A stretch of DNA of 59,758 bases from a virus (IMGVR_UViG_3300025310_000004:1-59758), one strand, 5' to 3'; shown: positions 5,879 through 37,685, counted from the first letter of the stretch. Notes: generated by a model not told the origin, from the sequence alone. Program-made: numbers and translations.

Positions 5879-6015
5879 CCGGCCAGACCTTCTCGGGTGC
5901 CAGGGGGTCCCTACCGGCCAGTCGAACCAGGGGGAGCACCCGGCCAGTCGAACGCCTCGAACCGGCTTCTACCGGGACCATAGGGGCTCCCGGCTGGCGA
6001 ACTCCCCCAGGGGGG

Positions 6016-6037
6016 TGTCACACCTGTGTGGTACGAT
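6016..6037 (+). promoter_or_regulatory. Phage promoter TGTCACACC-N7-TACGAT
   Basis: Recurrent motif followed by CGACGAAAGGAG RBS. Confidence 0.8.
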
Positions 6038-6069
6038 ACACGGGATAGACGACGAAAGGAGCCATCCCC

Positions 6070-6306
6070 ATGACCACTGCAACCGCGACCGTCGATGCCG
6101 ACGAACTACGAGCCCGAGCGCACACCATCATGGCGCTCGTCACCGAAGCGCTGGTCGAACTCGACGGCCTTCCTCCTCATCCCCAGCGCACGCGCCTGGG
6201 CCGCCACCTCCTGACTGCCCACAGCGTCGCCAAGGCGTGGCGTGAGGACGGCAACATGGACACCTCGAAGGGCGCGTACCACGTCGAAGGTGCGTACCGT
6301 GGCTGA
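6070..6306 (+). CDS. Hypothetical protein
   Basis: Strong RBS. Confidence 0.7.
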   Translation: MTTATATVDADELRARAHTIMALVTEALVELDGLPPHPQRTRLGRHLLTAHSVAKAWREDGNMDTSKGAYHVEGAYRG

Positions 6307-6583
6307 GGTCATCCGTGACGTGGTGTGGCCCGAAGCCCACCCGAACAACCCCAAGCCGCTCACCGAGGGCTTCTCGGTGCACGCTCAGCACAGCGTCGAT
6401 GACATCTGTGGCCGCCTGGTCGATGTCTACGTCGCCTACGTCTACCTGGGCGTGGAGATCATCTGGCACTTCACCGACGACAGCGGCATGGCCGTCGAGC
6501 ACTACGACAGCCTTGAGGACTTCGCCGCCTACTCGTTCCGGCGCTTCTCTCTGCGCTTGGCTGACCTGCTGGGGACGGAGTGA
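6299..6583 (+). CDS. Hypothetical protein
   Basis: GTG start overlapping the previous stop. Confidence 0.65.
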   Translation: MAEVIRDVVWPEAHPNNPKPLTEGFSVHAQHSVDDICGRLVDVYVAYVYLGVEIIWHFTDDSGMAVEHYDSLEDFAAYSFRRFSLRLADLLGTE

Positions 6584-6831
6584 TGGGCTACCCCTACCTC
6601 GATCGAGAGGACGAGTACGAGGAGTGGCTTGGTTCCCAGGCCGAGCGCGAGGCCGACGCCTACTACGAGGCGTACCAGCGCTACTGCGACGACGAGGAGG
6701 CGAAGTTCTACGATCGCCTGATGCGCGAGGAGTACGAGGCCGAGATGGAGGCCGAGGCATCCTGGGCCGATCTGCTGGCTCGGGTCGAGCGCGGCGAGTA
6801 CGACGAGCACTTCGATGACGACGCAGCCTGA
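6580..6831 (+). CDS. Highly acidic small protein (DNA-mimic candidate)
   Basis: 29 of 83 residues D/E, 14 aromatic. Confidence 0.7.
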   Translation: MMGYPYLDREDEYEEWLGSQAEREADAYYEAYQRYCDDEEAKFYDRLMREEYEAEMEAEASWADLLARVERGEYDEHFDDDAA

Positions 6832-7102
6832 GAACGACACCATCGTGCTGGTGATGCCCTCCCGGTGGCGGGCGGCTGTGTCGATGCTCGGGGAGCGCCG
6901 CCGCCTGCGCCGAGAACGACGGGCGTGGTCTTGGGCGCACCGCCAGCACGTCGATGCGCTGCTGCTGCCCCGCCCCTGAGAACGACTGAGGCCCTGCATA
7001 GGGTCCAATGTCCCCCGCCGCCCTGAGAACGCCTCGGCGTCCCTAAGAACACCTGGGGGCCTGCATACTCTAGGCCCGGCCCGTCCCCTCGACCGCCCCG
7101 AG

Positions 7103-7177
7103 TTATCCACAGCCTGTGGATAACACCTGGGTCAAACGGCCCACGAACAGGCGTTCTGTGGATAACCCTGTGGACAA
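7103..7177. promoter_or_regulatory. Cluster of four DnaA boxes
   Basis: TTATCCACA 7103, TGTGGATAA 7115 and 7157, TGTGGACAA 7169. Confidence 0.75.
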
Positions 7178-7207
7178 ACCCTCGACCTCTACCTGAGGTT
7201 GAGGGTC
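7177..7207. repeat. 31-bp palindromic element (AACCCTC family)
   Basis: AACCCTCGACCTC-TACCT-GAGGTTGAGGGTC. Confidence 0.75.
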
Positions 7208-7226
7208 GGACCTCACTCGCCCCAGC

Positions 7227-8838: not shown

Positions 8839-8860
8839 TGCCGCACCCATCGTGTATTAT
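8839..8860 (+). promoter_or_regulatory. Phage promoter TGCCGCACC-N7-TATTAT
   Basis: Variant of the recurrent motif. Confidence 0.65.
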
Positions 8861-8999
8861 GTCCGTCAGAGGGCGACGCACGAAAGCAGCGCCGACCAAA
8901 GCCCGGAGGCCGCTCGCTATAGAGCGCCGGGTGCCCCGAGAGAGACAAGCGTGCGTCACTCTCTCGGGGTCGCCACCCACCGACGAAAGGAGACACACC

Positions 9000-9616: not shown

Positions 9617-9960
9617 GCGTTCATGCGGGTGTTCAGGTACCCCTGGGCACCCGCAACGCCGAAGGTCGTCAGGACCCCCTCGGTGCCCAACTCCCAGGGC
9701 ACCGTCTGGGTCCAGGCGCAGACCACGGCCAGTGACACCCAGAACCCGAGACACCATGTGCAGGTGAGCAGGTCACCGATCTTGCCCCGCACCCACGAGC
9801 GGTCGTTGCCGTCGGAGTCGTAGGCGAAGTGGTCAACCCTCACCGACATCGCTGATCCTGAGTCCGGGCCGAAGCCCATGAGGGAGTCCTTCACGAAGAA
9901 CCGGGTGATGCGGTACGCAGCGAGTGCCAACACCACCAACTCGATCGGCTCAAGCATCAA
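9613..9960 (-). CDS. DUF1360-family membrane protein
   Basis: LALAAYRITR...D, GDLLTCTWCLGFW. Confidence 0.75.
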   Translation of the reverse strand: MMLEPIELVVLALAAYRITRFFVKDSLMGFGPDSGSAMSVRVDHFAYDSDGNDRSWVRGKIGDLLTCTWCLGFWVSLAVVCAWTQTVPWELGTEGVLTTFGVAGAQGYLNTRMNA

Positions 9961-10255
9961 GCCCTCGCTCCTTCTGGATCATCGCCTTGGCCGCTCGGCC
10001 GCCGCGCTCGATGGGTAGAGGCCCATCCACGAGGTCAACGCCCTCTTGGGCCAACTCGACCGGCAGCCGTCCGGTGAGCGCAGCCCAGCGCACCACCGTG
10101 TCTCGGTTCCAGGCTCGGCCGCCGTTGACCGACGGATGGTCAGGGTCGGGCATGAGGCCGCGATAGACCCAGGCGTGAGGGGTCCGCTTGTCCACTCCAA
10201 GCAGGTCCGCAATCTCGACCAGCCCGAGCACTTGGTATCCGTGATCGACAACCAT
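9950..10255 (-). CDS. HTH DNA-binding protein (AlpA/excisionase-like)
   Basis: GLVEIADLLGVDKRTPHAW..RGLMPDPD, leaderless TACTCT-N6-ATG. Confidence 0.7.
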   Translation of the reverse strand: MVVDHGYQVLGLVEIADLLGVDKRTPHAWVYRGLMPDPDHPSVNGGRAWNRDTVVRWAALTGRLPVELAQEGVDLVDGPLPIERGGRAAKAMIQKERGLDA

Positions 10256-11489: not shown

Positions 11490-12029
11490 ATGAAGGCTCG
11501 ACTCGCTGTTGTCGCCGTACCCATCGTAGCGATGGTGGCGACGCTGTTCGTCATTGGCACCACGGAATCTGCGGGCGACGGTGTTGTCACCGAAGCGGCA
11601 GGGGCGGAACCCACCGTCGTGACCGAAGCGCCGACCACCACGACCACGGTGGACCCCGCAACCCTCGCTGCGTTCTACGAGGCCGTGGCGGCCAGTCAGA
11701 CCACCACGACGATTGCCCCCCCTCCGCCGTCGCCAACCACGCCACCGACGACGGCAGCGCCCGCACCAGCCCCGGCGCAGTACGGCAGCGGAGCCTGTGG
11801 TGGTGACCTCCCGCCTTGCTACGTCATGATGCGCGAGTCGGGCGGCAACATCACCGCCCAGAACCCGACCTCGACGGCCAGCGGCAAGTGGCAGTTCCTC
11901 GACTCGACGTGGGGCGGCTACGGCGGCTACGCCAAGGCTCGCTATGCCCCTGAGTGGGTTCAGGACGAGCGCGCTCGACAGTTGTGGGCCGGTGGCGCTG
12001 GGTGCTCACATTGGAGTGCTTGTTCTTGA
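11490..12029 (+). CDS. Secreted Rpf-like (resuscitation-promoting factor) transglycosylase
   Basis: Signal peptide, T/P/A linker, C-terminal RESGGN...GKWQFLDSTW..YGG...A...Q...A..L....G..HW..C. Confidence 0.85.
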   Translation: MKARLAVVAVPIVAMVATLFVIGTTESAGDGVVTEAAGAEPTVVTEAPTTTTTVDPATLAAFYEAVAASQTTTTIAPPPPSPTTPPTTAAPAPAPAQYGSGACGGDLPPCYVMMRESGGNITAQNPTSTASGKWQFLDSTWGGYGGYAKARYAPEWVQDERARQLWAGGAGCSHWSACS

Positions 12030-12206: not shown

Positions 12207-12415
12207 TCGTCGTCCAGCGGACCGAACACGATGCCGGGGTCGAGAACCTCGGCCGCTTGATCCTGGATGTCGTCGAGAAGGTGGATCAGCCCGTTCAGGT
12301 GTTCCACGATCAGGTCATCCATCTCGTCGTCGGCCATGTCGATCAGGCTGACGAGCGTCGCCTTCTGCGCCCGGAGTAGGTCCAGGTCCACGTTGATGTC
12401 GATGGCGAGGTTCAC
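12203..12415 (-). CDS. Acidic hypothetical protein
   Basis: GAGGAGG RBS inside the upstream micro-ORF. Confidence 0.7.
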   Translation of the reverse strand: MNLAIDINVDLDLLRAQKATLVSLIDMADDEMDDLIVEHLNGLIHLLDDIQDQAAEVLDPGIVFGPLDDE

Positions 12416-12462
12416 TCGTCCTCCTCCTCAGCCTCGGCGTTGGCGTTGGCGATCTTGTCCAT
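12412..12462 (-). CDS. 16-aa micro-ORF MDKIANANAEAEEEDE
   Basis: CGACGAAAGGAG RBS, stop overlaps the next GTG. Confidence 0.55.
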   Translation of the reverse strand: MDKIANANAEAEEEDE

Positions 12463-12536: not shown

Positions 12537-13127
12537 CTACTCGGTGATGACCTTGTAGTTCCGCCCGGCGGGCAGCACGCGCAGACCAGGGACCGGAGCG
12601 CCGTCGTGGGTGAGCACGGCGTCGGAGGTACCGGCCACCTTGAGGGCTTCGGCGGCCTCGGCCTTGAGCAACTTCTTGACCTCGGTCTTGACGACCTTGG
12701 GTGCAGGCGGCGGCGGGGGGTCCGCAATGACCTGGGGCATGTTCTCGACGGCCCAGGCGGTGAACGCCTCCTCGTCGTAGAACTCCCACGTCGGCTGGGT
12801 GGCGGTGGACTTGAGCGTCCCGGCCGGGGTCGGGATGGTCTTGGCCTCGGGGTCGCTGGCGAGGGTCACCCGGTGGTACATCGCCAGGGCCTCCTCGAAC
12901 CACGCCTCCTGCTCGGCCAGAGCGCCCAGGCGCTCGTTCAGCCGATCGTTCAGCCGCTTGATGGCCGCAGCGTGGGCAGCCAGGTACTCGTCGCGCAGAC
13001 GACGCACTCGGGCGACCTGGGCGACCCATTGGGTGGCCTGGTCGAGATCGAGAGCGGGGGTGGGCTCGGCGTCGAAGTCAGGGGCCTCCCCTGCCAGCGC
13101 CTCATCGAACTCGTCGGTGATAGTCAT
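12537..13127 (-). CDS. gam: Mu Gam-like host-nuclease inhibitor (DNA end-binding) protein
   Basis: Coiled-coil N-half then KTIPTPAGTLKS...QPTWEFYDEEAFTAWA. Confidence 0.7.
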   Translation of the reverse strand: MTITDEFDEALAGEAPDFDAEPTPALDLDQATQWVAQVARVRRLRDEYLAAHAAAIKRLNDRLNERLGALAEQEAWFEEALAMYHRVTLASDPEAKTIPTPAGTLKSTATQPTWEFYDEEAFTAWAVENMPQVIADPPPPPAPKVVKTEVKKLLKAEAAEALKVAGTSDAVLTHDGAPVPGLRVLPAGRNYKVITE

Positions 13128-16281: not shown

Positions 16282-16475
16282 GCGCCGTCGAGACGGAGTG
16301 GCGCGACTACATGGTCACCATGACCGTGCACGTCAACATCCCCATCCACGCAGCCAACCCCAACTTCACGGCCGACGACGCCAAGGAGGCTGCCATCGAC
16401 CATGTGGTGGGGGCGATCGAGTCCTACACCCACGGCGATGCCGAGGTGGCTTCCATCACGGCGGTGGAGGAGTGA
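16278..16475 (+). CDS. Hypothetical protein, paralogue of 16723..16899
   Basis: Shared IHAANP.FTA.DAK...VVGAIESYT.GDAEVA.ITAVEE. Confidence 0.7.
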   Translation: MSAVETEWRDYMVTMTVHVNIPIHAANPNFTADDAKEAAIDHVVGAIESYTHGDAEVASITAVEE

Positions 16476-16726
16476 TGATGCTCTCCATCGCCGTCACCCC
16501 CGACGATCTTCTCGCCTTCGGGTGGGATGACGACTCGGCCCAGCGCCCCGACGACTTCGTTCGGCCGCTGCTGTCGTGCGGTCACTACGACCGCCCGGTG
16601 TTCTTCGCCTCGTCGCAGTGGGACTTCCCCCACGAGGCCCACGTCTGCCCCGTCTGCGGGGAGACTCGTCAGTGGGACCTGCGGGTGCAGGCGGCCATCA
16701 TCGAGGGCTGGAAGGAGGAAGCATGA
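16475..16726 (+). CDS. Zn-ribbon hypothetical protein
   Basis: LSCGH...CPVCG. Confidence 0.65.
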   Translation: MMLSIAVTPDDLLAFGWDDDSAQRPDDFVRPLLSCGHYDRPVFFASSQWDFPHEAHVCPVCGETRQWDLRVQAAIIEGWKEEA

Positions 16727-26007: not shown

Positions 26008-26049
26008 CCTTGTCGGCACGGGGCCGACGACGACGAAAGGAGCACCACC

Positions 26050-26292: not shown

Positions 26293-26297
26293 CCGCC

Positions 26298-26678: not shown

Positions 26679-26996
26679 ATGATCTATGCACTCTGGTTCG
26701 GCGGGGTGGGCTACGCCCCCGGCGACATGGTGGAGGACCTTGAGTCCTTCCCGTCCCTCGCCGCCGCCAAGGCCGCCCTGTCCGAGCGCTACGCCCGCGG
26801 CTACTCCTTCCGGCAGGACTTCGAGTTCGTCAACCGGGAGCCCGAGTCGGTCTACTGCCCCTGCGTGGAGGACGACTCCCGTATGTGGGTATGGCTCGCC
26901 GCCGACGAGGTGGACGGGGTGACCTACGTCCCCGAGTACCCGGACCGGATCATCGAGTTCGGCCCACGGGGCGGCGTGAACGTCACCGCCGCCTGA
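26679..26996 (+). CDS. Hypothetical protein
   Basis: GAAAGGGG RBS. Confidence 0.7.
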   Translation: MIYALWFGGVGYAPGDMVEDLESFPSLAAAKAALSERYARGYSFRQDFEFVNREPESVYCPCVEDDSRMWVWLAADEVDGVTYVPEYPDRIIEFGPRGGVNVTAA

Positions 26997-27079
26997 CAAC
27001 GTTCCGGGGGTGCCCTCGCGAGGGGGCACCCCTAAGAACGCCTCGCGCGTGCGCTATCGCGTGAGATGTAGGCCCCACA

Positions 27080-27108
27080 CGGCCAGTAGCCCCTACCACC
27101 ACTGGCCG
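27080..27108. repeat. CGGCCAGT-N13-ACTGGCCG dyad
   Basis: Spacer one base longer than usual. Confidence 0.65.
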
Positions 27109-27121
27109 CCACCCCCCCCTC

Positions 27122-27152
27122 AACCCTCAACCTCTACTTGAGGTCGAGGGTT
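27122..27152. repeat. 31-bp palindrome copy
   Basis: AACCCTCAACCTC-TACTT-GAGGTCGAGGGTT. Confidence 0.8.
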
Positions 27153-27180
27153 CGCCCGCGTCACTGGCCGCCCCCGGCCC

Positions 27181-27201
27181 TTGTCCACAGGCTGTGGACA
27201 A
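27181..27201. promoter_or_regulatory. Inverted pair of DnaA boxes
   Basis: TTGTCCACA-GGC-TGTGGACAA. Confidence 0.65.
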
Positions 27202-27223
27202 ACCTGGGGATGACGCACCCCCA

Positions 27224-27273
27224 CCGAATGATCCGAATGACCTATGGACCATGGCGCACCCCACCCCTACTAT
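27224..27273 (+). promoter_or_regulatory. Composite phage promoter of the ardC-like gene
   Basis: CCGAATGATCCGAATGACCTATGG, TGGCGCACC-N7-TACTAT. Confidence 0.75.
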
Positions 27274-27320
27274 GTACCCCATGAGGTCGCCACGGGGGCG
27301 GCCCTAGAAAGGGGAACACC

Positions 27321-28184
27321 ATGAGCACCGATGAGGCACGGCAGGCACTCGACACGCTGCACGCGAGCATCGCGAAGATCACCGACTCCGACGCCTGGCG
27401 CGAGCACCTGGCGGTGCAGGCCCGGTTCCACGACTACAGCCCGCTCAACATCATGTGGATGTGGTGCCAGTGGGAGGCCCGCCGCGCCGAGAACCCCGAC
27501 CTGCCGGAGTTCTCCCAGCCCGCAGCGTTCTCCGCCTGGAAGGACCTGGGTCGCCACGTCCGCAAGGGCGAGAAGGCCCTGAGCGTTCTCGCTCCCATCA
27601 TCGTCACCGACCGCGAGAACCTGGGTCCCGACGGCAAGCCGCGGACCAAGTGCGTCGGGTTCCGCGTGAAGCGGCGCACGTTCGATGTGGCGCAGACTGA
27701 GGGCGACCCCCTCCCCGAGAACCCCGCCATGCCGTCGCTGCTGACGGGCGAGGGCGACCCCGCCACCTGGGAGGCCCTGGTGGCGCACGCCGCGACCCTG
27801 GGGTGCACGGTGCAGGTCACCGACGCCTGCCAGCCCGCGAACGGGGACTACAGCCGGGCGACGGGGCTGATCCGCGTGGCCGAGAGCCTGGACCACGCGC
27901 AGCAGGTCAAGACCCTGCTGCACGAGGTGGCGCACGCCACGCTGCACAGTGGCGACACCGACCTGAGCCGGGCCGAGAAAGAGGTCGAGGCCGAGAGCAC
28001 CGCTTTCGTGGTCGCCGCCCTGCTGGGGTTCGACACCGCGGCCTACAGCGTCGGCTACGTCGCCACCTGGGCGAGCCGGGACGACCATGGCGAGTGCCTG
28101 CGGCGCACGACTGAGCGAGTCGTGAAGGCCGCCCGCACCATCGCCGCAGCCCTGGCGCAGCACCCCGCCACGCTGGCAGCCTGA
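27321..28184 (+). CDS. ardC: ArdC-like antirestriction ssDNA-binding protein with a HEXXH domain
   Basis: RFHDYSPLN, W..LGR.VRKGEKA, FDV.QT.G, LLHEVAH, E.EAES.AFVV, YS.GYV.TW. Confidence 0.85.
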   Translation: MSTDEARQALDTLHASIAKITDSDAWREHLAVQARFHDYSPLNIMWMWCQWEARRAENPDLPEFSQPAAFSAWKDLGRHVRKGEKALSVLAPIIVTDRENLGPDGKPRTKCVGFRVKRRTFDVAQTEGDPLPENPAMPSLLTGEGDPATWEALVAHAATLGCTVQVTDACQPANGDYSRATGLIRVAESLDHAQQVKTLLHEVAHATLHSGDTDLSRAEKEVEAESTAFVVAALLGFDTAAYSVGYVATWASRDDHGECLRRTTERVVKAARTIAAALAQHPATLAA

Positions 28185-28225
28185 GGGCGAGGGGCGGTCC
28201 GAACCTGGGCCGCCCCTCAACCCTC

Positions 28226-28256
28226 AACCCTCAACCTCAAGTAGAGGTCGAGGGTT
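28226..28256. repeat. 31-bp palindrome copy
   Basis: AACCCTCAACCTC-AAGTA-GAGGTCGAGGGTT. Confidence 0.8.
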
Positions 28257-28465
28257 TGGGGCCTGGGTGGGCCAGTCGAGCCCTGCGCCGGGCCAGTCAG
28301 ACCTGGGGGATGGTGAACCCGGCGGTCGCCCCCTGGTCGAGCGGGACGCCCCCAGGGGATCGCCTCGGAGAACGGGCCATACGACCCACTTGACGGGTAG
28401 GTTGTATCATAGGCTACGATGGCGACACGCCAACAGGGGCGAGCAACCCGAAGGGGGTGACCAAC

Positions 28466-28660
28466 ATGAGCAAGCGCAAGCGCAAGCCACAGAAGGCAGG
28501 CACCGTGGCCGAGACGGTCACCTTCATGCGCCGCCAGAACCGCGAGGCCATCGTGGCCGACATGCGGGAGGGGCGGGTGCAGAAGGCTCACACCTTCACC
28601 GATCGCAAGCGCGAGGCACGCCGCACGGCCTGCCGGGGGAAGTTCTCCCCGGCAGACTGA
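28466..28660 (+). CDS. Small basic protein
   Basis: GAAGGGGG RBS, K/R-rich. Confidence 0.65.
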   Translation: MSKRKRKPQKAGTVAETVTFMRRQNREAIVADMREGRVQKAHTFTDRKREARRTACRGKFSPAD

Positions 28661-28940
28661 GCGCAAGACCGAGGGCGGTCCACGTTCCGCCCAGGGGGAA
28701 CCCTCCTGATGGCCGCACCGCTTCGGCGGGGGGCAAGTGTAGGGAGGGAGGTCGAGCAACCCCGAAGCCCCCGGAGGGTCGCGAACCTCCGGGGGTGAAC
28801 GTGGCCGACGTGACTGGCCGCCCGCCCCGGCGCACGGTCCGAAGATGGTCCGAACGGCCTATAGTACGGGATGGCGTAGACGTGCCATACTGTCACCACG
28901 GCAACGCACGGGGCGGGGCCACCGACGAAAGGGGAACTAC

Positions 28941-29228
28941 ATGAGCATGATCGTCACCGGGGGAATCATCGACACCTCCCGGCTCCGGGCACTCGCTGCC
29001 GCATGGCACTCGGGCATGTCCTCGCCGCTCTACGCGCTGGCGTCCTCCGGGGCCATCGTGGACGGCATCGAACGCGAGGTGGAGGAAGCCATCGCGGACG
29101 CCGAGCGGTTCGGCACCACCGACCCGGACTACGCCGCCGACGTGGTGCCCCTGCGCCACCTGCTGACCTACGTCCGACACCACGGCCCGCGCGGCCCGGT
29201 GGAGGGGTGGAGCGACATCCGCTTCTGA
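28941..29228 (+). CDS. Actinophage hypothetical protein
   Basis: WHSGMSSPLYALASSG motif, strong RBS. Confidence 0.7.
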   Translation: MSMIVTGGIIDTSRLRALAAAWHSGMSSPLYALASSGAIVDGIEREVEEAIADAERFGTTDPDYAADVVPLRHLLTYVRHHGPRGPVEGWSDIRF

Positions 29229-29425
29229 GAACGTGGGCGGGAGCAATACCGGGGGTCGCTCCCTCGGGGCGAGGGTCGCCACCTCGCCGGGGCCGTGAGC
29301 GCCCCGCAACCTCCCGCCCTCGCTCGCCGCCTCGCCGCCCTGAGAACGCCTCGGGCGCGTCTGACGCGGGGCACCCTGAGAACGCCTCGGGCGCGGCTGC
29401 CGCGCATATGGCGGGACGCCCCCTG

Positions 29426-29485
29426 CGGCCAGTGGCCGCCCTACTACTGGCCGCACCCCGCCCCCGGAGGCCGAACGGGTGTTCG
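29426..29485. promoter_or_regulatory. 8-12-8 dyad followed by an SOS box
   Basis: Dyad 29426-29453, CGAAC-GGGT-GTTCG 29472-29485. Confidence 0.75.
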
Positions 29486-29506
29486 TGAGTCTGTCGGCCC
29501 CCCACC

Positions 29507-29554
29507 GAATGATCCATCTGGCCTATGGTCAGTGTCGCACCCGTCCTGTATCGT
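29507..29554 (+). promoter_or_regulatory. Composite phage promoter
   Basis: Upstream box plus TGTCGCACC-N7-TATCGT. Confidence 0.75.
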
Positions 29555-29603
29555 TCTCCCCATCGGTGCCACGGGGGCACCGCCGACGAAAGGGGGCCAC
29601 CCT

Positions 29604-29867
29604 ATGGCCGAATCCGAGAGCCGATCCGAGCGGGCGATGTTCGCCGCCGTCTGGGTACTGATCGCGTTCGCCCTGTTCTACTTCGGGGCGCACGTCGTGA
29701 TCGCCGTGCACCGCGGGACCTTCCCGCCCGAGCCGCGCCCGGTGCCCGAGTGCACCGTCTGGGAGGATGGCTCCGCCCGGTGCACCCTGCCGCCCTCGCA
29801 ATGGGTCCCGGCAGGCACCACCCTGAGCGGGTGCAGCGACGACCCTGCCGCCCTCTGCCACGACTGA
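29604..29867 (+). CDS. Small membrane protein
   Basis: One N-terminal TM helix, strong RBS. Confidence 0.7.
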   Translation: MAESESRSERAMFAAVWVLIAFALFYFGAHVVIAVHRGTFPPEPRPVPECTVWEDGSARCTLPPSQWVPAGTTLSGCSDDPAALCHD

Positions 29868-29943
29868 GGCCCGCCCGCCCTCCCCACCAGGGGGGCGGGT
29901 GCGCCCCTGCACTGGCCGCTCCCTCGCCTCGCCGGACGAGGAA

Positions 29944-29989
29944 GGGCCGAATGGCCTATGGAGTTCCTGTCACACCTGACCGATACTAT
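29944..29989 (+). promoter_or_regulatory. Composite phage promoter
   Basis: GGGCCGAATGGCCTATGG, TGTCACACC-N7-TACTAT. Confidence 0.8.
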
Positions 29990-30039
29990 ACCTATGAGCG
30001 GGCCGCACGGGGCGGCCCACCGGCACCACCTGAGAGGGG

Positions 30040-30228
30040 GTGAGCATGGTCAGCACCACCGCAGTCGTCACGCTGTCGGACGGTACCCAGGTCGGGATCA
30101 CCGTCACCGATGGCGAGGTGACCTGGGTGGCGGAGCGCCCGACGCCGGGCGCATCCTGGGGACCGCCTCTGCGGCGTCAGGATGAGGAGTGGCGTCACGA
30201 GCGCGACACCTTCGCCATCCGCGACTGA
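30040..30228 (+). CDS. Hypothetical protein
   Basis: GAGGGGG RBS. Confidence 0.65.
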   Translation: MSMVSTTAVVTLSDGTQVGITVTDGEVTWVAERPTPGASWGPPLRRQDEEWRHERDTFAIRD

Positions 30229-30435
30229 ATCGGATTCGGCCCCCGCCGGGGGGGTGGCAACAGAAACCCCGGCCCCCTCAGGGGGGATCATCTCCTCAGC
30301 GTTGCGCGACGCGATCCGGCACCGCGCACCCTGAATCACACAGTGAGGCGGTTCGACTCCGCCGCCCGAGGGGGACCCGGTTGGTCACTGTGCAGGGGCC
30401 GGGGTAGGGAGGTGGTCCCCCCTGAGGGGTGCGGT

Positions 30436-30463
30436 CGGCCAGTGCGGCCCTGGGAACTGGCCG
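30436..30463. repeat. CGGCCAGT-N12-ACTGGCCG dyad
   Basis: Exact match. Confidence 0.75.
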
Positions 30464-30704
30464 CCCTGGGCCTGGGGTGGACGGGGGAGAGGTCGCCCCC
30501 TCCCCCGTCGCCCTCTGTTGCGGCGGTGCCGCTAGTGGGTAGCACCCTCTCTCCGGGCGGGGCCAGCCGCCCACGTCCTGGCCGACGTGAGTGCTCGTCT
30601 GTTGCACCGAGGCTCCTACTTGAGAGTGATACCGCCCACTAGGGGCACCCCCTGAGGGGTGGGGGAGTTCTGTTGCCGCGCCTCCCCCGTGCGCCGAGTC
30701 TGAG

Positions 30705-30872
30705 TCAGTCCTGAGCCTGAGCGGCTACGGCGGCCCGCCGCGCCTTCGCCGCGGCCCGCTGCGCCCCCCGACGCTCCTGCCGACGCTTGTCGGCCGCAGC
30801 GTTCCGCTCGTCCCGCTTGTCGCGGAAGTCGGTGCGGGTGGCTCGCTCCATGTTGAGCGATCCCTGTGCCAT
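30705..30872 (-). CDS. Small basic protein (55 aa, not in the ORF track)
   Basis: MAQGSLNMERATRTDFRDKRDER..., GAAGGGGG RBS. Confidence 0.6.
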   Translation of the reverse strand: MAQGSLNMERATRTDFRDKRDERNAAADKRRQERRGAQRAAAKARRAAVAAQAQD

Positions 30873-30996
30873 CTGTTCACCCCCTTCGGGTGTCCCTTCC
30901 CCGGCGGCCCCGTGCCGTCGTGGTATGTATGTATTATCGGCCCTGCCACCGAGGAAGTGAATAGGTCATTCGGATCATATCTCGGGGGGCCGACAC

Positions 30997-31082
30997 CGAA
31001 CGGGTGTTCGAGGGCGTGCCCCCGGCCAGTTCGCCCCCCAGCACTGGCCGACCTGGGCCTCTGCGGGCCGAACACGCGTTCG
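30997..31082. promoter_or_regulatory. SOS box, 8-12-8 dyad and second SOS box between divergent promoters
   Basis: CGAAC-N4-GTTCG at 30997 and 31069, dyad at 31023-31050. Confidence 0.75.
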
Positions 31083-31094
31083 CCCGGCAAGGTA

Positions 31095-31137
31095 GGGCCG
31101 AATGGCCTATGGTACTGTCGTACCCGTTTGATACTAT
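31095..31137 (+). promoter_or_regulatory. Composite phage promoter
   Basis: Upstream box plus TGTCGTACC-N7-TACTAT. Confidence 0.7.
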
Positions 31138-31183
31138 GTCCCTGTCGGGCCGCACGGGGCGGCCGACAGAAGGGAGACTCACC

Positions 31184-31369
31184 ATGGCAACGCTCACCGC
31201 AGACGAGAAGCGCGAGGCCATCGCCCACGCTCGGGGCTTCGAGATCGAGGACCTTGAGGAAGCGATGATGGACGGAGGGATCGAGACGGCAGACGGCTGC
31301 TGGGTCGAGCCGGACGGGCGGTGCGCCCACGGGTACCCCTCCCCCCTCCGCATCCTCGGCTACATCTGA
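31184..31369 (+). CDS. Conserved small phage protein
   Basis: CWVEPDGRCAHGYPSPL..LG.I. Confidence 0.7.
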   Translation: MATLTADEKREAIAHARGFEIEDLEEAMMDGGIETADGCWVEPDGRCAHGYPSPLRILGYI

Positions 31370-31428
31370 GCCGCACGGGGTCGGCCCTACGGGGTCGGCC
31401 CCATCGGCGCGCCCGCCGACGCCCTGGG

Positions 31429-31490
31429 CGGCCAATTCCCCCGCCACCACTGGCCGCAGCCCGGCCCTGCGGCGGCCGAACGCCTGTTCG
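31429..31490. promoter_or_regulatory. Imperfect 8-12-8 dyad and an SOS box
   Basis: CGGCCAAT-N12-ACTGGCCG, CGAAC-GCCT-GTTCG at 31477. Confidence 0.7.
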
Positions 31491-31714
31491 ATCGTCGGCC
31501 CCGTCGGATATGATCCGAATGGCCTACTTGACGTACCGGCCCCGTACTATAGGATTGGCTCATACCCGCTGGGAAGCGGCACCGGCCCTAGATGCAGCGT
31601 GGCGGTTTGGCACCGCAGACCAAAGGCCAGCAATCGCAACATGCGACCATGAGGCGGCCCCACGGGGGGGCGGCCCTGAGTGCACCGAAAGGGGGTGAAC
31701 ATAAGGGGATCAAC

Positions 31715-31918
31715 ATGGACTTCACGGTCTGGGCACTCAAGGGCGACGGCACCGCCGAGGTGGTGGCCGAAGGGGTGGACGGCGAGCGCGCCGAGTCCAT
31801 CGCTCGACACCCGTCGCTGAGCGGTTGTCGGGTGGCGGTGCTGCCGACCTGGGCGGCGGGGCCGGTCCCCACGTCCCCGGCGGTGCTGGCCGCCATGGCG
31901 GCCGAGCGGGGCAACTGA
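31715..31918 (+). CDS. Hypothetical protein
   Basis: AAGGGG RBS. Confidence 0.6.
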   Translation: MDFTVWALKGDGTAEVVAEGVDGERAESIARHPSLSGCRVAVLPTWAAGPVPTSPAVLAAMAAERGN

Positions 31919-31977
31919 GCCCCGCCGAGGTCCCGCCCCTCACGGGGGGCGGGGCTTCGCCGCGCCCGCACTGGCCG

Positions 31978-32073
31978 AACCCTCAACCTCAACCTGAGGT
32001 TGAGACTCGCAACCCTCAACCTCAACTAGACGTTGAGGGTTGGCCAGTTACCCCTGGACCGAACGGGTGTTCG
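31978..32073. repeat. Two palindrome copies and an SOS box
   Basis: AACCCTCAACCTC units at 31978 and about 32012, SOS box 32060-32073. Confidence 0.75.
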
Positions 32074-32084
32074 GCCCGAAAGTT

Positions 32085-32130
32085 GGGCCGAATGACCTAT
32101 TCACTTCCTGTCACGGGTGACCGATACTAT
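32085..32130 (+). promoter_or_regulatory. Composite phage promoter
   Basis: Upstream box plus TGTCACGGG-N7-TACTAT. Confidence 0.7.
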
Positions 32131-32174
32131 ACATGTGAGGCCGCCACGGGGGTGGCCCACCGAAAGGGGAAGTC

Positions 32175-32387
32175 ATGCACGGGAGCATCACCACCGAGCC
32201 GATGGGCGAGGCGCACAAGGTCGAGAAGTTCGACCACCGCCCCGACCGGACCGAGCGGGAGCGGGCGAGCAAGGCCCGCCGACAGGGCCGACGGGCCGAC
32301 CGCCGGACCGCCGCCCGCCGCCGCTACGAGGATGAGCAGCGGGGGGCCGACCTCATGGCTCGCCGCCACGGGGTCACCGCCGACTGA
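32175..32387 (+). CDS. Small Arg-rich protein
   Basis: GAAAGGGG RBS. Confidence 0.65.
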   Translation: MHGSITTEPMGEAHKVEKFDHRPDRTERERASKARRQGRRADRRTAARRRYEDEQRGADLMARRHGVTAD

Positions 32388-32485
32388 GGCCCGCCACCGG
32401 GGGCACCCCACGGGGTGCCCCTTCGGCGCGCCCGCCCACGGCACTGGCCGCCCGCCCCGCCCGCCCGAGCGGCCCGCCGAACTTA

Positions 32486-32528
32486 GGGCCGAATGGCCTA
32501 TGTACCTGTCGCACCGTTCCTGTATGAT
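32486..32528 (+). promoter_or_regulatory. Composite phage promoter
   Basis: Upstream box plus TGTCGCACC-N7-TATGAT. Confidence 0.8.
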
Positions 32529-32575
32529 CTACTCAAGAGGTCGCCACGGGGGCGGCCGCCACGAAAGGGGTCACC

Positions 32576-32752
32576 ATGACTCGCAAGGACTTCACCGCCA
32601 TCGCCCAGATCATCGCCGAGGTGCCCGAGCAGGGCGCAGGGCCGGAGTGGCTGGCGAGCGCCTTCGCCGCCTTCCTCGCCGGGACGAACCCCCGGTTCGA
32701 CCGGGACCGCTTCATGCGGGCCTGTGGCGTCGGCCACCTCGCGGACAACTGA
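32576..32752 (+). CDS. Conserved small phage protein (58 aa, not in the ORF track)
   Basis: MTRKDF.AIA...NPRFDRDRF..ACG. Confidence 0.75.
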   Translation: MTRKDFTAIAQIIAEVPEQGAGPEWLASAFAAFLAGTNPRFDRDRFMRACGVGHLADN

Positions 32753-32817
32753 GCCGCCCGCCACGGGGCCGCCCTTCGGGGCGGCCCTTCGGCGCGCCCC
32801 GCCCCCGGCACTGGCCG

Positions 32818-32848
32818 AACCCTCACCCTCCACCCGAGGTTGAGGGTT
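32818..32848. repeat. 31-bp palindrome copy
   Basis: AACCCTCACCCTC-CACCC-GAGGTTGAGGGTT. Confidence 0.7.
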
Positions 32849-32982
32849 GCGTTCTCACTGGCCGCCCGCCCGACCTTGGGGCAGGTAGGGCCGAATGACC
32901 TATGGACCCCCTACTATCACTCGTGCCATGATGAGGGCACGAGGTCGCCACGGGGGCGGCCCGCAACCCGAAGGGGACCACC

Positions 32983-33216
32983 ATGACCACCTACGCCTAC
33001 GACGTGGCCGAGATTTCGGCCGCCTGCCGCCTCTGCGGCGACGTGCACTTCGCCATCGTGGCCGAGGCCGATTTCGTCCGGTTCTACTGCGAGGGCGAAC
33101 TCGTGCAGGTCGCCTTCCCCGAGGCCACGCCCGAGGTGCGCGAGATCGCCATGGCCTACCGGCCGAACGGCTACTACGTCTGCCCCGCCTGCTGGGAGGC
33201 CATGGGCGACGAGTGA
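32983..33216 (+). CDS. Small Zn-finger protein
   Basis: CRLC...CPACW, strong RBS. Confidence 0.7.
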   Translation: MTTYAYDVAEISAACRLCGDVHFAIVAEADFVRFYCEGELVQVAFPEATPEVREIAMAYRPNGYYVCPACWEAMGDE

Positions 33217-33459
33217 CCGCCCGCCACGGGGGCACCCCACGGGGTGCCCCTTCGGCGCGCCTACCACCCTCAACCCTCAACCCTCACCCTCAACCTCAGG
33301 TCGAGGGTCGGAGGCCCCCGGCGGCCAGTCCATAGGGTCTAGAGGCATGGCACCGGCCAGTCGAACTAGGCCCCGGCCAGTCGAATGCCCCTCTCCTCTC
33401 GCAACGCGTGACGCGTGTAGGGGCAGGGGGTCGAACCCCCCGCCCCCCTCGCGCTCGCC

Positions 33460-33678
33460 TCAGTCGTAGAGGCTCACGCTCAGTTCCCACGCCCGGAGCC
33501 ACGACTCCATCGTGGGGCACAGGTCCTTCGCCTCCCACCACAGGACCTCCATGGCGGCGGTGTCCTCGGCGTCATCGCCGTAGGTGTCGAGCACCCAGGA
33601 CGACGCGAGAGCGTGGAGGGCGAGCAGGCTCGCCGCCCCGAGCAGGTTGTCCAGGGTGGTGGGCTGGGTGGTGTCCAT
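33460..33678 (-). CDS. Hypothetical protein
   Basis: GAAAGGGG RBS, promoter at 33726-33747. Confidence 0.7.
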   Translation of the reverse strand: MDTTQPTTLDNLLGAASLLALHALASSWVLDTYGDDAEDTAAMEVLWWEAKDLCPTMESWLRAWELSVSLYD

Positions 33679-33725
33679 CGTGGTCCCCTTTCGGTCGAGC
33701 ACCCCCGTGGTGCTCGCTTACAGAC

Positions 33726-33747
33726 ATAGTATCGGCAGGGTGTGACA
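33726..33747 (-). promoter_or_regulatory. Phage promoter TGTCACACC-N7-TACTAT
   Basis: Recurrent motif. Confidence 0.8.
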
Positions 33748-33787
33748 GGAACTTGAGCCATCCGCCGAAGATGTGCCGAACGGCCTA

Positions 33788-33981
33788 CGAACATCCGTTC
33801 GCCCCCTCCGACCGAACGGGTGTTCGGTCGCCGCCCGACGGTACTGGCCGCAACCCTCAACCTGGGGTCGAGGGTTGGTCGAACCCTCACCCTCAACTAG
33901 AGGTTGAGAGTTTGCGGCGAACTGGCCGCCGCCCCCCTCCGGTGGCGCAGACCGAACGGCTGTTCGCCGAACGGCTGTTCG
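33788..33981. promoter_or_regulatory. Four SOS boxes around palindrome copies
   Basis: CGAAC-N4-GTTCG at 33788, 33813, 33953, 33968; AACCCTC palindromes at 33851-33912. Confidence 0.8.
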
Positions 33982-34021
33982 TGGTCCGAACGGATCATTC
34001 GCACCGGATCGCTCAAGTTCC

Positions 34022-34043
34022 TGTCACACCGGGCCGATACTAT
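34022..34043 (+). promoter_or_regulatory. Phage promoter TGTCACACC-N7-TACTAT
   Basis: Recurrent motif. Confidence 0.8.
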
Positions 34044-34086
34044 GACTGTGAGGCCGCCACGGGGGTGGCCGACGAAGGGAGACACC

Positions 34087-34272
34087 ATGGACCCGAACGC
34101 TGCACTCCGCAACATGCGCGAGGCCATCTCGCGCACCTGGGAGGCCGAGGGCGAGGCCGACCGCCTCGCTGCGGCCGAGGACCTCGCCGTTGCGGCCGAG
34201 GCCCTGGACTCGTGGCTCAGCACCGGGGGCTTCCTCCCCTCCGGCTGGGCTGCGGCCGAACCGGCCGCCTGA
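34087..34272 (+). CDS. Conserved actinophage small protein
   Basis: MDPNAAL...ALDSWLS.GGFLP..W. Confidence 0.8.
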   Translation: MDPNAALRNMREAISRTWEAEGEADRLAAAEDLAVAAEALDSWLSTGGFLPSGWAAAEPAA

Positions 34273-34337
34273 GTCCAACCCTCAACCGGGGCGCCCCCCT
34301 CAACCGGGGGCGCTTCGGCGCGCCCGCCCTAAGAACG

Positions 34338-34368
34338 AACCCTCGACCTCAACTTGAGGTTGAGGGTT
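34338..34368. repeat. 31-bp palindrome copy
   Basis: AACCCTCGACCTC-AACTT-GAGGTTGAGGGTT. Confidence 0.8.
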
Positions 34369-34535: not shown

Positions 34536-34598
34536 CGAACACGCGTTCGGGCCGAACAAGCGTTCGGGCCAAACACGCGTTCGGCGAACGGCCGTTCG
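34536..34598. promoter_or_regulatory. Tandem array of four SOS boxes
   Basis: Boxes at 34536, 34553, 34570 (CAAAC variant), 34585. Confidence 0.8.
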
Positions 34599-34881
34599 TG
34601 GGCCGATCGGCCCACCACGCCCGACGGGGCGCGGCGAGCGCCACCACGGGCGCCGACGACGACCACACCCGACGGGCGCGCCGACGCCGACGGCGTAGCG
34701 GGCGCAACCACTACCACGACCACGGCGCCGCGGTCAACCACCACGCCGACGACGACCACGCCGACGACGCCGACGACGCCGGGCACGGGAGGGTACTTGA
34801 CCACGCCGACGGGATCGCCTAAGGTAACGACGACCAACCACCACGGCGCCACCACGGCGCCGCCCGACCACGGGAGACACC

Positions 34882-35319
34882 ATGACCACCACGACCGACA
34901 CCATGACCACCACGACGGGCGGGCGCATCGTGCGCGCCTACGCGGTGAGCGTGAGCATGGCAGGGTACCTGCCGAACGACGGCGCCGTGGCGCTCTACGC
35001 CGATGCCTACGACGCCGTGCGCGACGCCGTGGACACGTTGCGCCGTGACGCCGACGACGTTTGGTCACTCCACGACGACGACGCCGACATGGCGCGCGAT
35101 GCCGCGGCACCCTACGACGACGCGGCAAGCGCGCTCGCCGCGTCGGCCGACGCCGTGGCCGCGCACCTACTCACGGCGCCGATGGACTACGGGCACGACG
35201 TCATCGTGCGATCGGTCTACGGTCCAACCATGGTCTACCGCGTCGCGGTCGTCGCGGCGTGCTGCCCGTCGGTCGTGGACGGGCGCGGCCACGACGGCGC
35301 GCCGTGGTCGTGCGATTGA
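34882..35319 (+). CDS. Low-complexity hypothetical protein
   Basis: TTGACC-N17-TAAGGT promoter, GGGAG RBS; no E, K, Q or F. Confidence 0.65.
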   Translation: MTTTTDTMTTTTGGRIVRAYAVSVSMAGYLPNDGAVALYADAYDAVRDAVDTLRRDADDVWSLHDDDADMARDAAAPYDDAASALAASADAVAAHLLTAPMDYGHDVIVRSVYGPTMVYRVAVVAACCPSVVDGRGHDGAPWSCD

Positions 35320-35493
35320 CCACGACGACCACCACGACGACCACGGGCGCCCGCTCACGACGGGCGCCCGTGGCGCGTCACGACGCCGACGACGACGGGC
35401 ACGGGAGGGTACTTGACCACGCCGACGGGATCGCCTAAGGTAACGACGACCAACCACCACGGCGCCGACGGCGCCACGACCACGGGAGACACC

Positions 35494-35880
35494 ATGACCA
35501 CTCTCACGCCCGCCACCACGCCCGACGCGCCGACCACGCCCGACACCTACGCACGGCGCCTAGTGGCCGCGGGATTCACGCTCCACGACGCCCGACGCAT
35601 CGCACGCGACGCCGACGCCCGCGGCGCGTTCACGCCGACCACGGCGCCCGCCTACGACGACGCCGACACCGCGGCGGGCGCGGGATGGTCGGTCGTGGCG
35701 CTCCACGCCGACGGGCGCGGAGAGATTCTGACCACCACGCCGACGCACGGCGCCGCGGCCACGCTCGCCGCGGGCTACGACCGCGCCGCGACCATCGGCG
35801 CCGCCACGGGCGCCCGTCGGCGCTCGCGCATCGTGGTCGTGCCCGCCTACGACGCCGACGCCGTGGCGGGCGCGCGATGA
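35494..35880 (+). CDS. Low-complexity hypothetical protein
   Basis: Duplicated promoter/RBS block upstream. Confidence 0.6.
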   Translation: MTTLTPATTPDAPTTPDTYARRLVAAGFTLHDARRIARDADARGAFTPTTAPAYDDADTAAGAGWSVVALHADGRGEILTTTPTHGAAATLAAGYDRAATIGAATGARRRSRIVVVPAYDADAVAGAR

Positions 35881-35960
35881 CCACCGCGCCGACGGGCGGG
35901 CGCACCACGGCGCCCGCCCACCACGACCGACCGACCACCACGACCACCACGGGAGACACC

Positions 35961-36539
35961 ATGACCACGCTCACGCTCACGCCCGCCACGACCGACGCCG
36001 TGCGATTCACCACGGCGCCCGCTACGCCGTTCACGCCGACGCCCGTGGTGCTCACCGCGGGAACGGTCGTCGCGATTCGTTGGGCAGGGTACAACGGCGT
36101 GCGCGGCGCCACGGCGTTGCACAAGACCGAAACGGTCGTGAGCGTGGCCACGACCGACGGCGTGCGCGGCGTGCTCACGCTCACGGGCGGCGCTTACAAG
36201 AACGGCGCCACCACGCGCACGCTCAACACTCACCGCGCCGATGGGCGCCCGTCGTCGCAGATTCTCGGCGCCTACCCTGTCGGCGCCGTGGTGGCGGCGC
36301 TCGCCGCGGTCATGGGCGCCACGCCCGCCACGACCGACGCCGACGACCACGCCGACGCCGACGGCGCCACGACCGACGACCACGACCACGACGGCGACGG
36401 CGTGCCCGTGGTGGGCGGGCGCAGCGTGGCGGCGCGGCGAGGGTACGCGCGGGCTAAGCGGGCGGCGCGTCGCACGCTACGACGCGTGGAGCGCCGCGAC
36501 GCGATCCGCGCAGCGTGGCACGACCACGCCGACGCGTGA
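35961..36539 (+). CDS. Low-complexity hypothetical protein
   Basis: GGGAG RBS, basic C-terminus. Confidence 0.6.
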   Translation: MTTLTLTPATTDAVRFTTAPATPFTPTPVVLTAGTVVAIRWAGYNGVRGATALHKTETVVSVATTDGVRGVLTLTGGAYKNGATTRTLNTHRADGRPSSQILGAYPVGAVVAALAAVMGATPATTDADDHADADGATTDDHDHDGDGVPVVGGRSVAARRGYARAKRAARRTLRRVERRDAIRAAWHDHADA

Positions 36540-37040
36540 CCGCGGGCGCCGACGGGCGCCGACCACGACCACGGGCGCCCACCACGGGCGCCCGTGGCGC
36601 GTCCACGCCGACGCCCGCTCACGGGCACGCGTGGCACTCACGGGCACCACGACGCCCGACGGCGCGCCACGGGCGGCGCTCACGGGCGCCTAGGCGGCGC
36701 TCACGGGCGCCTAGGCGGCGCCCGTGCCCGTGCCCGTTGTGCCCGACCACGGGAGACACCACGACGAACGACGCGACGACGAACGACGCGACGAAACGAC
36801 GCGACGAAACGACGACCGACGACGACGCCCGACCACGGGCGCCACGCCGACGCCCGCTCACGGGCACGCGTGGCACTCACGGGCACCACGACGCCCGACG
36901 GCGACGACCGACGACGACGACCGGCGACGACGACGAACGACGCGACGAAACGACGCGACGAAACGACGCGACGAAACGACGCGACGACCGACGACCGACG
37001 ACCGACGACGACGCCCGACCACGGGCGCCACGCTCACGCC
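36540..37040. repeat. Non-coding T-depleted micro-repeat block
   Basis: 57-bp duplication (36604 and 36844), ACGACGCGACGAA tandems, T-free runs of over 100 nt. Confidence 0.8.
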
Positions 37041-37145
37041 CGAACGCGTGTTCGGCCGAACGCGTGTTCGTGGGCCGAACGACCTACGAACGTCTGTTCG
37101 CCCGAACGCGTGTTCGGCGCGTCGCGAGTACCGAACGCGTGTTCG
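37041..37145. promoter_or_regulatory. Array of five SOS boxes
   Basis: CGAAC-N4-GTTCG at 37041, 37057, 37087, 37103, 37132. Confidence 0.85.
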
Positions 37146-37685
37146 AGCGCCCCACCCCCCCTCCCCCACACCCCCACACATGGACGCCGGATAATAGCAC
37201 CTACCCCGACATTTCAATCCGCTACCTAGAAGTTGGGATAATAGGGTAGAACTCCGACTCCCTCCCTCCATCTCGGTGTGGATCGACGTGCGTTGTGATC
37301 CCTCCCCCCCTGATGCAGTGGACCAACGGGTCGATGGGTCGTCGGCGGACTCGGGGTCCTCGGACAACTCACGACATCCGGCGGCCTGATAATAGGGTGT
37401 AGGTATGCCCACTATTATCGTTGTGACCGATGGGTCACAATCGTGCACATCTCCCCAATGTGACTGATCGTGCACACCGGCTTTCCATTCGCTGTCGGAA
37501 CCGCACCGCAACCTACGAGTGGGTGTGAGGTTCCACCCCGGAATCGACAATCGGAAAGCGCTACTGAGCAACTCAGTGCGCGCCCAGATGGAAAGCAAAG
37601 TTGCACTTAGGGGGCCTAAGGGTAAGCAGAGTTTCCATTCGGGGGGCTAAGGGTGCATGGAGACAACCTTGGGCCGACAAAGGCG

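Follow-up and report, generated by a model that had tools for sequence, protein, structure and literature searches.

A cassette array of small genes, with spacers rich in host-regulator-like sites, in a putative early region of a large actinophage genome

The stretch of DNA analysed here (the window, 59,758 nucleotides) comprised bases 1–59,758 of a 171,330-bp virus contig (G000; contigs L001–L003 and L100 belonged to the same strain), and it contained an array of gene cassettes between positions 6016 and 36539. The array occupied both strands and held about 49 mono- or bicistronic units with 62 short genes, compact at 6–19 kb and separated by elaborate spacers at 21.4–34.6 kb. By our own gene calls, 49 of 62 genes at 6.0–36.5 kb led a unit, compared with 73 of 203 at 38–170 kb, while coding density was 0.77 at 6–22.5 kb and 0.56 at 22.5–36.6 kb, against 0.90–0.96 elsewhere. 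Motif counts in the region 6.0–37.2 kb were set against 40 Markov shuffles: there were 13 strict promoters of the form TGTCRCACC-N7-TANNNT (0 in shuffles), 19 copies of an 'upstream box' (0.05 in shuffles) and 18 copies of the ribosome-binding site (RBS) GACGAAAGGRG (0.03 in shuffles). Given these leaders, the low coding density and the excess of all three motifs, the array announced in a preliminary description of this DNA was borne out. Its attribution to an actinobacterial phage also stood, through matches to a portal, a major capsid protein and a terminase encoded by G000; the capsid relatives shown among cultured phages all infect actinobacteria, the closest being Arthrobacter phage Mimi (36%).

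The preliminary description had claimed a single order common to more than 30 units, which may be read as hairpin, spacer, upstream box, promoter, leader hairpin, strong RBS and small open reading frame (ORF). This held only loosely, as the order was complete in only about ten units. The RBS was found in 39 of the 49 leaders, the upstream box in 29 and the TGTC promoter in 19 (both at no more than two mismatches, the promoter being exact in 11), and the sequence CACGGGG in 18; all four elements occurred together in 10. The order was best developed from 22.5 kb onward. All but one of the 23 gaps between units at 22–36.5 kb measured 174–609 bp (180–400 bp for the most part), the exception being 80 bp, and this agreed with the spacers of 150–400 bp that had been proposed. 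Units lay in either orientation and their ORFs were mostly without kinship, as previously stated.

The hairpins were less uniform than had been described. CACGGGG formed the loop, C(ACGGG)G, of 5'-leader hairpins with varying stems (22908–34064), situated 5' of the RBS in 18 units; however, such leaders occurred only from 22.6 kb, and the total of 33 copies was close to the shuffle maximum of 31. Three of four post-ORF hairpins tested were stable (z = -3.5 to -4.4; the fourth gave z = -2.1), but the GC hairpin said often to be of the C-UUCG-G type was less common, with CTTCGG found within 60 nt 3' of only 10 of 49 unit ends, in some of which it was not the loop of the hairpin but came after it. 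The post-ORF hairpins lacked U-tracts, U-tract hairpins were not enriched (5 versus 5.2), and classical U-tract terminators were unsupported.

The 13 strict promoters (spanning 6016–34043) were located at 6016, 7342, 15545, 19255, 23016, 25986, 29533, 29968, 32507 and 34022, of which 15545 was on the minus strand and the others on the plus strand, and at 7248, 13182 and 33747 on the minus strand. They were not specific to the array, since 21 of 34 strict sites genome-wide lay elsewhere. The motif, TGTCRC-N10-TA-N3-T, shares the GTC triplet and the spacing of the PafBC consensus tGTCgg(N10)tA(N3)T (PMC8635444), and in these features it resembles a class of promoter at which RNA polymerase with SigA fires without a -35 element and single-stranded DNA (ssDNA) is stimulatory (PMC8635444, PMC11804915). 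The likeness to the PafBC-dependent promoters of actinobacteria thus covers the GTC triplet, the 10-bp spacer, TA-N3-T and the position of the strict variant before host repair genes, while the difference is that the motif is here in a phage genome, in 34 copies (PMC8635444, PMC11804915).

Host genomes were represented by 61 genomes of the class of one Acidimicrobiia metagenome-assembled genome (MAG), with the reversed motif as control. The phage's exact strict motif occurred 253 times, in 47 of the 61, against 13 occurrences for the control. In the Acidimicrobiia MAG, three of five strict sites preceded radA, sbcD and a UvrD/AdnA-like helicase gene, and TGTC-N12-TANNNT was present upstream of recA in four of five actinobacterial genomes. 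Tandem WYL genes, which we take to be pafB-pafC although no NCBIfam model matched them, were found in two of three Acidimicrobiia MAGs (G005, G006); a search for the WYL family found no such protein in G000, nor in two distant phages used for comparison, G001 (113 kb) and G002 (149 kb). Sigma-70-like sites numbered only six at 19–38 kb, where most promoters were of the -26/-10 or upstream-box/-10 kind. No description of phage promoters of the PafBC class was found in the literature searched. Some promoters had no ORF behind them and were followed by hairpins (7248–7190 on the minus strand, 19255–19380 and 21270–21420 on the plus strand); the latter two, which are conserved in the related contigs L101 and L102, may be sources of small RNAs. 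At 12412–12462, a complete promoter and RBS preceded a mere 16-codon remnant, where L102 and L178 have a DUF4241 gene.

The upstream box (32 copies, 7127–37087) is an 18-bp pseudo-palindrome, or alternatively a pair of 9-bp direct repeats, mostly placed 21–25 bp 5' of the -10 element. It occurred once each in 9 of the 61 host-class genomes, in upstream regions, and never as the control; one of these host copies preceded a BldC homologue (E = 5e-11 to PDB 6AMA). BldC sites are direct repeats of 9 bp with an AT-rich core plus C-G. The BldC site at whiI consists of 9-bp repeats (PMC5859096), and the upstream box has both a 9-bp period and, judged by eye, about seven of nine bases in common with the BldC whiI-opt repeat. 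At no more than three mismatches, the box was found 5' of 7 of 30 host bldC-like genes and 1 of 30 coding controls, the controls not being matched for composition and one of the seven being the seed. The box appears to be a host motif resembling BldC repeats, and BldC is probably its binder. This assignment is provisional, as a MerR-like protein is also encoded by the phage itself: a MerR/BldC-like winged helix-turn-helix (HTH) protein at 9950–10255 on the minus strand, conserved in phages (65–84% identity among relatives), whose top fold matches are all of the MerR family but weak (E >= 0.017). This protein is also a candidate binder of the upstream box. When the exact box pattern was sought in viral contigs, there were 31 matches, mostly due to chance, with one real relative.

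The spacers contained further palindromes that resemble the sites of host regulators. The SOS (LexA) box GAAC-N4-GTTC occurred 18 times in the array, where 0.4 would be expected, and not at all in the 132-kb genome body, while the same box preceded recA in all of five host genomes. Nine of the 18 were in spacers at 29473–33980, each with its start 12–43 bp from that of an upstream box and without overlapping -35 or -10 elements. SOS boxes were positioned either 5' of the upstream box or within clusters lacking genes (7103–7207, 34537–34597 and 37042–37144), and so did not overlap a repressed promoter in the manner of LexA operators. The first cluster is a composite module without an attached gene, combining an inverted DnaA-box pair, an upstream box, an SOS box, DnaA boxes and an FtsR box.

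FtsR-like palindromes were found in ten places, at 24987, 27124, 28228, 31980, 32013, 32826, 33287, 33884 and 34340 (main span 24987–34362) and at 7179, with none beyond 60 kb and none in the 132-kb body. They match 17–19 of 24 bases of the tested Corynebacterium glutamicum ftsZ site (PMC6683498), and are inverted repeats of about 25 bp, as are FtsR (Rv1828) sites in ftsZ promoters. Across 185,579 genomes, the phage's FtsR pattern gave 17 matches, of which four were directly 5' of ftsZ (three in Acidimicrobiia, one in Occultella) and at least two preceded a MerR-family gene. HspR, SoxR and McdR, at first candidate binders of the palindromes, were dropped once the host context proved to be ftsZ/FtsR and bldC. 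Five contigs of a related phage group (L126, L128, L130, L135 and L139) had a perfect FtsR box and a partial second copy in, or just 3' of, a small conserved tail-region gene.

Six DnaA boxes, identified by the established consensus, formed inverted pairs in the array and were absent from the 132-kb body; the pair at 27181–27201 was kept in the relatives L101 and L109. The mixture of boxes differed between strains, the window having 18 SOS, 10 FtsR and 6 DnaA boxes compared with 4, 15 and 18, respectively, in 10 kb of L179, and one FtsR box was missing from L106. Phage homologues of LexA, FtsR, DnaA and WYL proteins were not seen, only WYL having been searched as a family, and the literature searched contained no report of FtsR, LexA or DnaA modules in phage spacers.

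Box modules recurred inside the cassette arrays of at least four other phage lineages. G001 and G002 had arrays of the same build, with TTGAC promoters, and 13 of 16 and 14 of 18 of their SOS boxes, respectively, lay inside them; L134 and L138 had DnaA/SOS/FtsR modules among single-gene units, and L138 additionally had eight strict promoters of the PafBC type within 9.9 kb. Alignments to L102, L106 and L109, in which the SOS boxes were not covered, showed that motif bases were 93–100% conserved, whereas the remaining spacer sequence reached 82% and coding sequence 87%; FtsR boxes were exceptional at 74%, because one had been replaced by a plain hairpin. A search for related loci seeded with ORF 7929 found no relatives, and relatives of a 377-aa gene flanking the array were without any array. 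This gene and an HTH gene form the right flank of the array here (37849–39544) and the left flank in L178 and G001.

Cassettes had been predicted to be gained, lost and reordered among relatives with breakpoints in the motifs, and this was true in part. L101 (74–93% identity) was without about ten units. One of its junctions lay inside two homologous hairpins (23401–23430 and 23902–23935 in the window), junctions 4–8 fell in a hairpin, spacer or RBS, and ORF 22156 was placed behind the promoter of unit 29604. L102 was collinear but for three insertions or swaps, one being an insertion that splits the upstream box at 14025 and another an exchange of the ORF immediately 3' of the RBS at 12460. 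In L179, the right-end units were reordered, with one inverted and one duplicated, and duplicated genes and promoter blocks were seen in both G001 and L179. However, gene order was mostly collinear among the close relatives L102, L106, L109 and L178, and the left-hand junctions 1–3 of L101 cut ORFs, contrary to pure cassette shuffling.

These observations bear on the proposal that the array is a gene-shuffling platform akin to the promoter stem-loop (PeSL) cassettes of the T4-type phages RB49/phi1, PST and nt-1 (PMC2839356, PMC4122927). As in those cassettes, a stem-loop and promoter stand at gene boundaries before ORFans within a variable region, and relatives differ by indels of whole units with cassette breakpoints. 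The best unit pairs were 74–82% identical across 65–145 bp, where PeSL units have about 100 bp of conserved sequence in common, and identity between units is lower here (PMC2839356, PMC4122927). The promoter is of the -26/-10 kind and not a strong sigma-70 -35/-10 promoter, the capsid and portal are of actinophage type and not those of a T4-type myovirus, and spacers of 180–400 bp with host operator look-alikes are seen only here (PMC2839356, PMC4122927). Since promoter type and virus group differ, the array is not a member of the PeSL class. Shuffling of the PeSL kind was partly supported by whole-cassette deletions, the hairpin crossover and ORFs swapped behind a promoter; whole units are exchanged, but the spacer motifs are mainly look-alikes of host-regulator sites. 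A platform is not the whole story, because the spacers mimic sites for PafBC, LexA, FtsR, DnaA and probably BldC, which recombination does not need. In Mimi (L123), about 30 units at 4–17 kb had in common a motif containing TTACAAAA on their upstream side, and a hairpin that overlaps the -35 element; this is a PeSL-like array in a cultured phage and a usable experimental stand-in for shuffling.

Cassettes had been thought to continue to 37.2 kb, but 34.6–37.0 kb proved to be a distinct block with its own promoter and RBS. This T-poor, low-complexity block (34620–37040, plus strand) has three ORFs and a duplicated TTGAC-type promoter, and is without ACTGG, CTGG or TCGA. At its left edge is an SOS cluster of three perfect boxes and an upstream box (34537–34615), and at its right edge another of five boxes and an upstream box (37042–37144), the latter in the probable neighbourhood of a physical genome end. 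Contig L179 ends at the module closing the block, G002 ends about 0.9 kb into it, and the cassette array of Mimi sits in a terminal repeat of about 19.9 kb; from these a genome end near 37.2 kb appears likely, and the early region would most likely lie in a long terminal repeat or at one end of the genome. Bases 1–87 of G000 are an exact 87-bp repeat of 170001–170087, after which the sequences diverge, so that the final 1.3 kb has the appearance of an alternative first-cassette allele or of an assembly branch and the unit genome is about 170.0 kb.

The ACTGGCC tag (4584–34477) was present in 53 copies, often as GGCCAGT-N12-ACTGGCC, with 52 copies in the array and one in 137 kb; ACTGGNC was avoided in the genome body, and G001 and G002 carried their own ACTGG/GGAC variants. 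The pair GGCCAGT-N8-16-ACTGGCC was rejected as a host operator (3 of 61 genomes, below the control). A role of ACTGGCC as a Chi-like host signal was unsupported, since the tag was not consistently over-represented across 31 genomes and showed no polarity within the phage. Many type II/IIS-like sites (AGCT, CTGGAG, GGTCTC, GAAGAC, CTGAAG, ACTGGG, TCGACGA and most 6-bp palindromes) were almost totally avoided throughout G000. The idea of the array as restriction-free, first-entering DNA was not supported, as the 6-bp sites avoided in the body were almost all avoided in the array too and only the block at 34.6–37.0 kb was further stripped.

Recognizable cargo included an ArdC-like anti-restriction protein (27321–28184, plus strand; PF08401; phrog_7245, E = 2.6e-16), a protein of the tRNA nucleotidyltransferase/poly(A) polymerase family (25156–25869, plus strand; PF01743; phrog_24229, E = 1e-49) and a Mu Gam-like DNA end-protection protein (12537–13127, minus strand; PF07352; phrog_2205). 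A replication-initiator-like HTH protein was encoded at 18014–19087 on the minus strand, immediately left of the array's elaborate part, and a similar-looking gene occupies the same place in G001. A secreted Rpf-like transglycosylase gene lay within the array (11490–12029), and a LAGLIDADG-like ORF (PF14528; 16970–17302), absent from L102, was found amid duplicated short genes (16343–16476 and 16767–16900, 84% identical). A cassette ORF in G001 (L059 3650–4250), which to our eye looks like ArdA, would be a second anti-restriction family in such arrays.

Rfam gave no match across 5–38.5 kb. A non-coding stretch at 30230–30700 and in L059 (12360–12530) was structured, with inverted repeats nested in one another and T-loop words resembling those of tRNAs; as conservation of its core extends to the distant phage G001, this may be an RNA gene. 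Small ORFs were also preceded by long leaders bearing tRNA-like arms, at 31560–31650, at 8860–8960 and in L059 (12420–12480), again without an Rfam match. An ARAGORN call of tRNA-Met at 29186–29274 overlapped the end of ORF 28947–29228, had no Rfam support, and is probably false.

The small genes, strong RBS (39 of 49 leaders), own promoters and cargo of ArdC, Gam and nucleotidyltransferase are what is expected of a host-takeover region, and the cargo fits an early anti-defence role. On our assessment there is about an even chance that the array is the early host-takeover and anti-defence region of a large Acidimicrobiia-type actinophage, driven by host activators and carrying decoy boxes in bulk. 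It is a region of gene swapping that probably also taps or soaks up host regulators. The promoters copy the host PafBC -26/-10 arrangement, and on this model host RNA polymerase with ssDNA-activated PafBC would transcribe the phage genes upon the damage signal of infection; the phage itself encodes no WYL protein. The upstream box, 21–25 bp 5' of the -10 element, would recruit a BldC-type host protein, and the phage's MerR-like protein may occupy it later. The least certain step concerns the LexA, FtsR and DnaA boxes, which would act as bulk sites and not as placed operators, in view of their location off core promoters, their grouping in clusters without genes and a mixture that changes from strain to strain. 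Replicating phage DNA would then titrate LexA, FtsR and DnaA, de-repressing SOS and lowering ftsZ expression and chromosome initiation. Lastly, the comparison of relatives shows whole units being deleted, duplicated and swapped by recombination, in the manner of PeSLs, because the units are self-contained and share stretches of 65–145 bp with 74–82% identity; shuffling is a real consequence of the design and not its sole purpose.

Several points weigh against this model. A recognizable -26 element was present in only 19 of 49 leaders, and the arrays of G001, G002 and L179 were driven largely by TTGAC promoters, so that use of PafBC is not needed for the architecture. With 18 LexA boxes per incoming genome, which is few, titration could matter only after replication. 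BldC sites are not predictable from sequence (PMC6428758), the Acidimicrobiia-type host is deduced from the motif match alone, and evidence that the region is terminal is indirect. ACTGGCC, the motif present in the greatest number, is left without an explanation.

All 18 SOS boxes lay 12–63 bp from an upstream box, which fits local regulation equally. The host-like boxes might therefore be true operators, at which occupancy by LexA, FtsR, DnaA and BldC gates the cassettes, allowing the phage to read damage or cell-cycle state and to delay or tune lysis. Host recA promoters do pair an SOS box with a PafBC promoter, and clusters of CtrA sites regulating phage genes provide a precedent (PMC9437464), but the boxes are situated off promoter elements and in gene-less clusters, and have been exchanged between strains before homologous genes, making this explanation unlikely. 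It is more improbable still that the boxes and ACTGGCC serve DNA entry or end protection, with host proteins coating, pulling or stalling the first-entering DNA as in the injection-stop region of T5. Box density climbs towards 37 kb, SOS, DnaA and FtsR clusters flank the compositionally distinct terminal block where two independent contigs end, Gam and ArdC lie within the array, and the T5 region has eight DnaA boxes (10.1101/866236, an in-silico proposal). Against this, there is no fixed T5-like arrangement, the boxes being scattered over 30 kb; an A1/A2-like gene was not identified, no specific search having been made; and the genome end is itself deduced.

There is slightly less to commend a reading of the motifs mainly by phage proteins (the MerR-like protein at 9950–10255, another HTH protein or a sigma adaptor), their likeness to host sites being partly inherited or incidental. 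The conserved MerR/BldC-like fold of that protein and its 65–84% identity among relatives favour this, as do the ACTGGCC pairs, which were rejected as a host operator and which the phage body avoids; a precedent is Gp36 of phage D29, a repressor of the MerR type with direct repeats as its binding sites (PMC12266134). Yet four separate motifs match known host sites at the expected genes (recA, ftsZ, radA/sbcD and bldC-like), and phage homologues of LexA, FtsR, DnaA and WYL were not seen in searches that covered only WYL as a family. Least probable of all is the strict form of the original proposal, a pure recombination platform whose motifs are homology islands spread by duplication or conversion. 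Whole-cassette indels, the paired-hairpin crossover and RBS-adjacent ORF swaps in L101 and L102 agree with it, together with the duplications in G001 and L179, but it leaves unexplained the identity of the boxes with host operators, their recurrence alongside different promoters and their conservation above that of coding DNA, and order is mostly collinear in close relatives. Extending the host-takeover model beyond this one phage is more doubtful than the model itself, but is tentatively suggested: several lineages of Acidimicrobiia phages may express early genes from the host's ssDNA-triggered PafBC promoter, use spacer DNA as a sponge for LexA, FtsR, DnaA and BldC, such that division and chromosome replication are arrested and SOS de-repressed without inhibitor proteins, and mark the region for some protein with an ACTGG- tag that is avoided elsewhere.

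Host-regulator sites occur in other phages, GIL01 being controlled by LexA and phi29 having Spo0A sites. The nearest precedent for clusters of host sites is given by the CtrA-site clusters and 'lytic deferment' of Alphaproteobacteria phages, in which sites for a host regulator are likewise dense in intergenic DNA in several lineages (PMC9437464). Those clusters concern one regulator rather than the four or five seen here, where most sites are off core promoters and in exchangeable cassettes. The T5 injection-stop region is similar in having repeat-rich non-coding DNA and DnaA boxes beside pre-early genes, but its eight boxes form one fixed array, whereas the boxes described here are scattered, mixed and strain-variable (10.1101/866236). 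The host-takeover modules in the terminal repeats of SPO1 (PMC6873191), kayviruses (PMC6445280) and Mimi share the many small genes, strong RBS, own promoters, anti-defence cargo and probable terminal position, but use -35/-10 promoters, and the first 30 kb of Mimi contains no SOS, FtsR, DnaA or PafBC motif. Cassette arrays of small early genes are therefore already known, while a phage combining host PafBC promoters with multi-regulator spacer sites was undescribed in the literature searched. If the host-takeover model is true, the damage alarm of the host becomes the start signal of the phage, and non-coding DNA is a tool of host takeover. The motifs also offer a means of predicting the host (Acidimicrobiia) from sequence only, and flag an uncharacterised promoter motif in the host.

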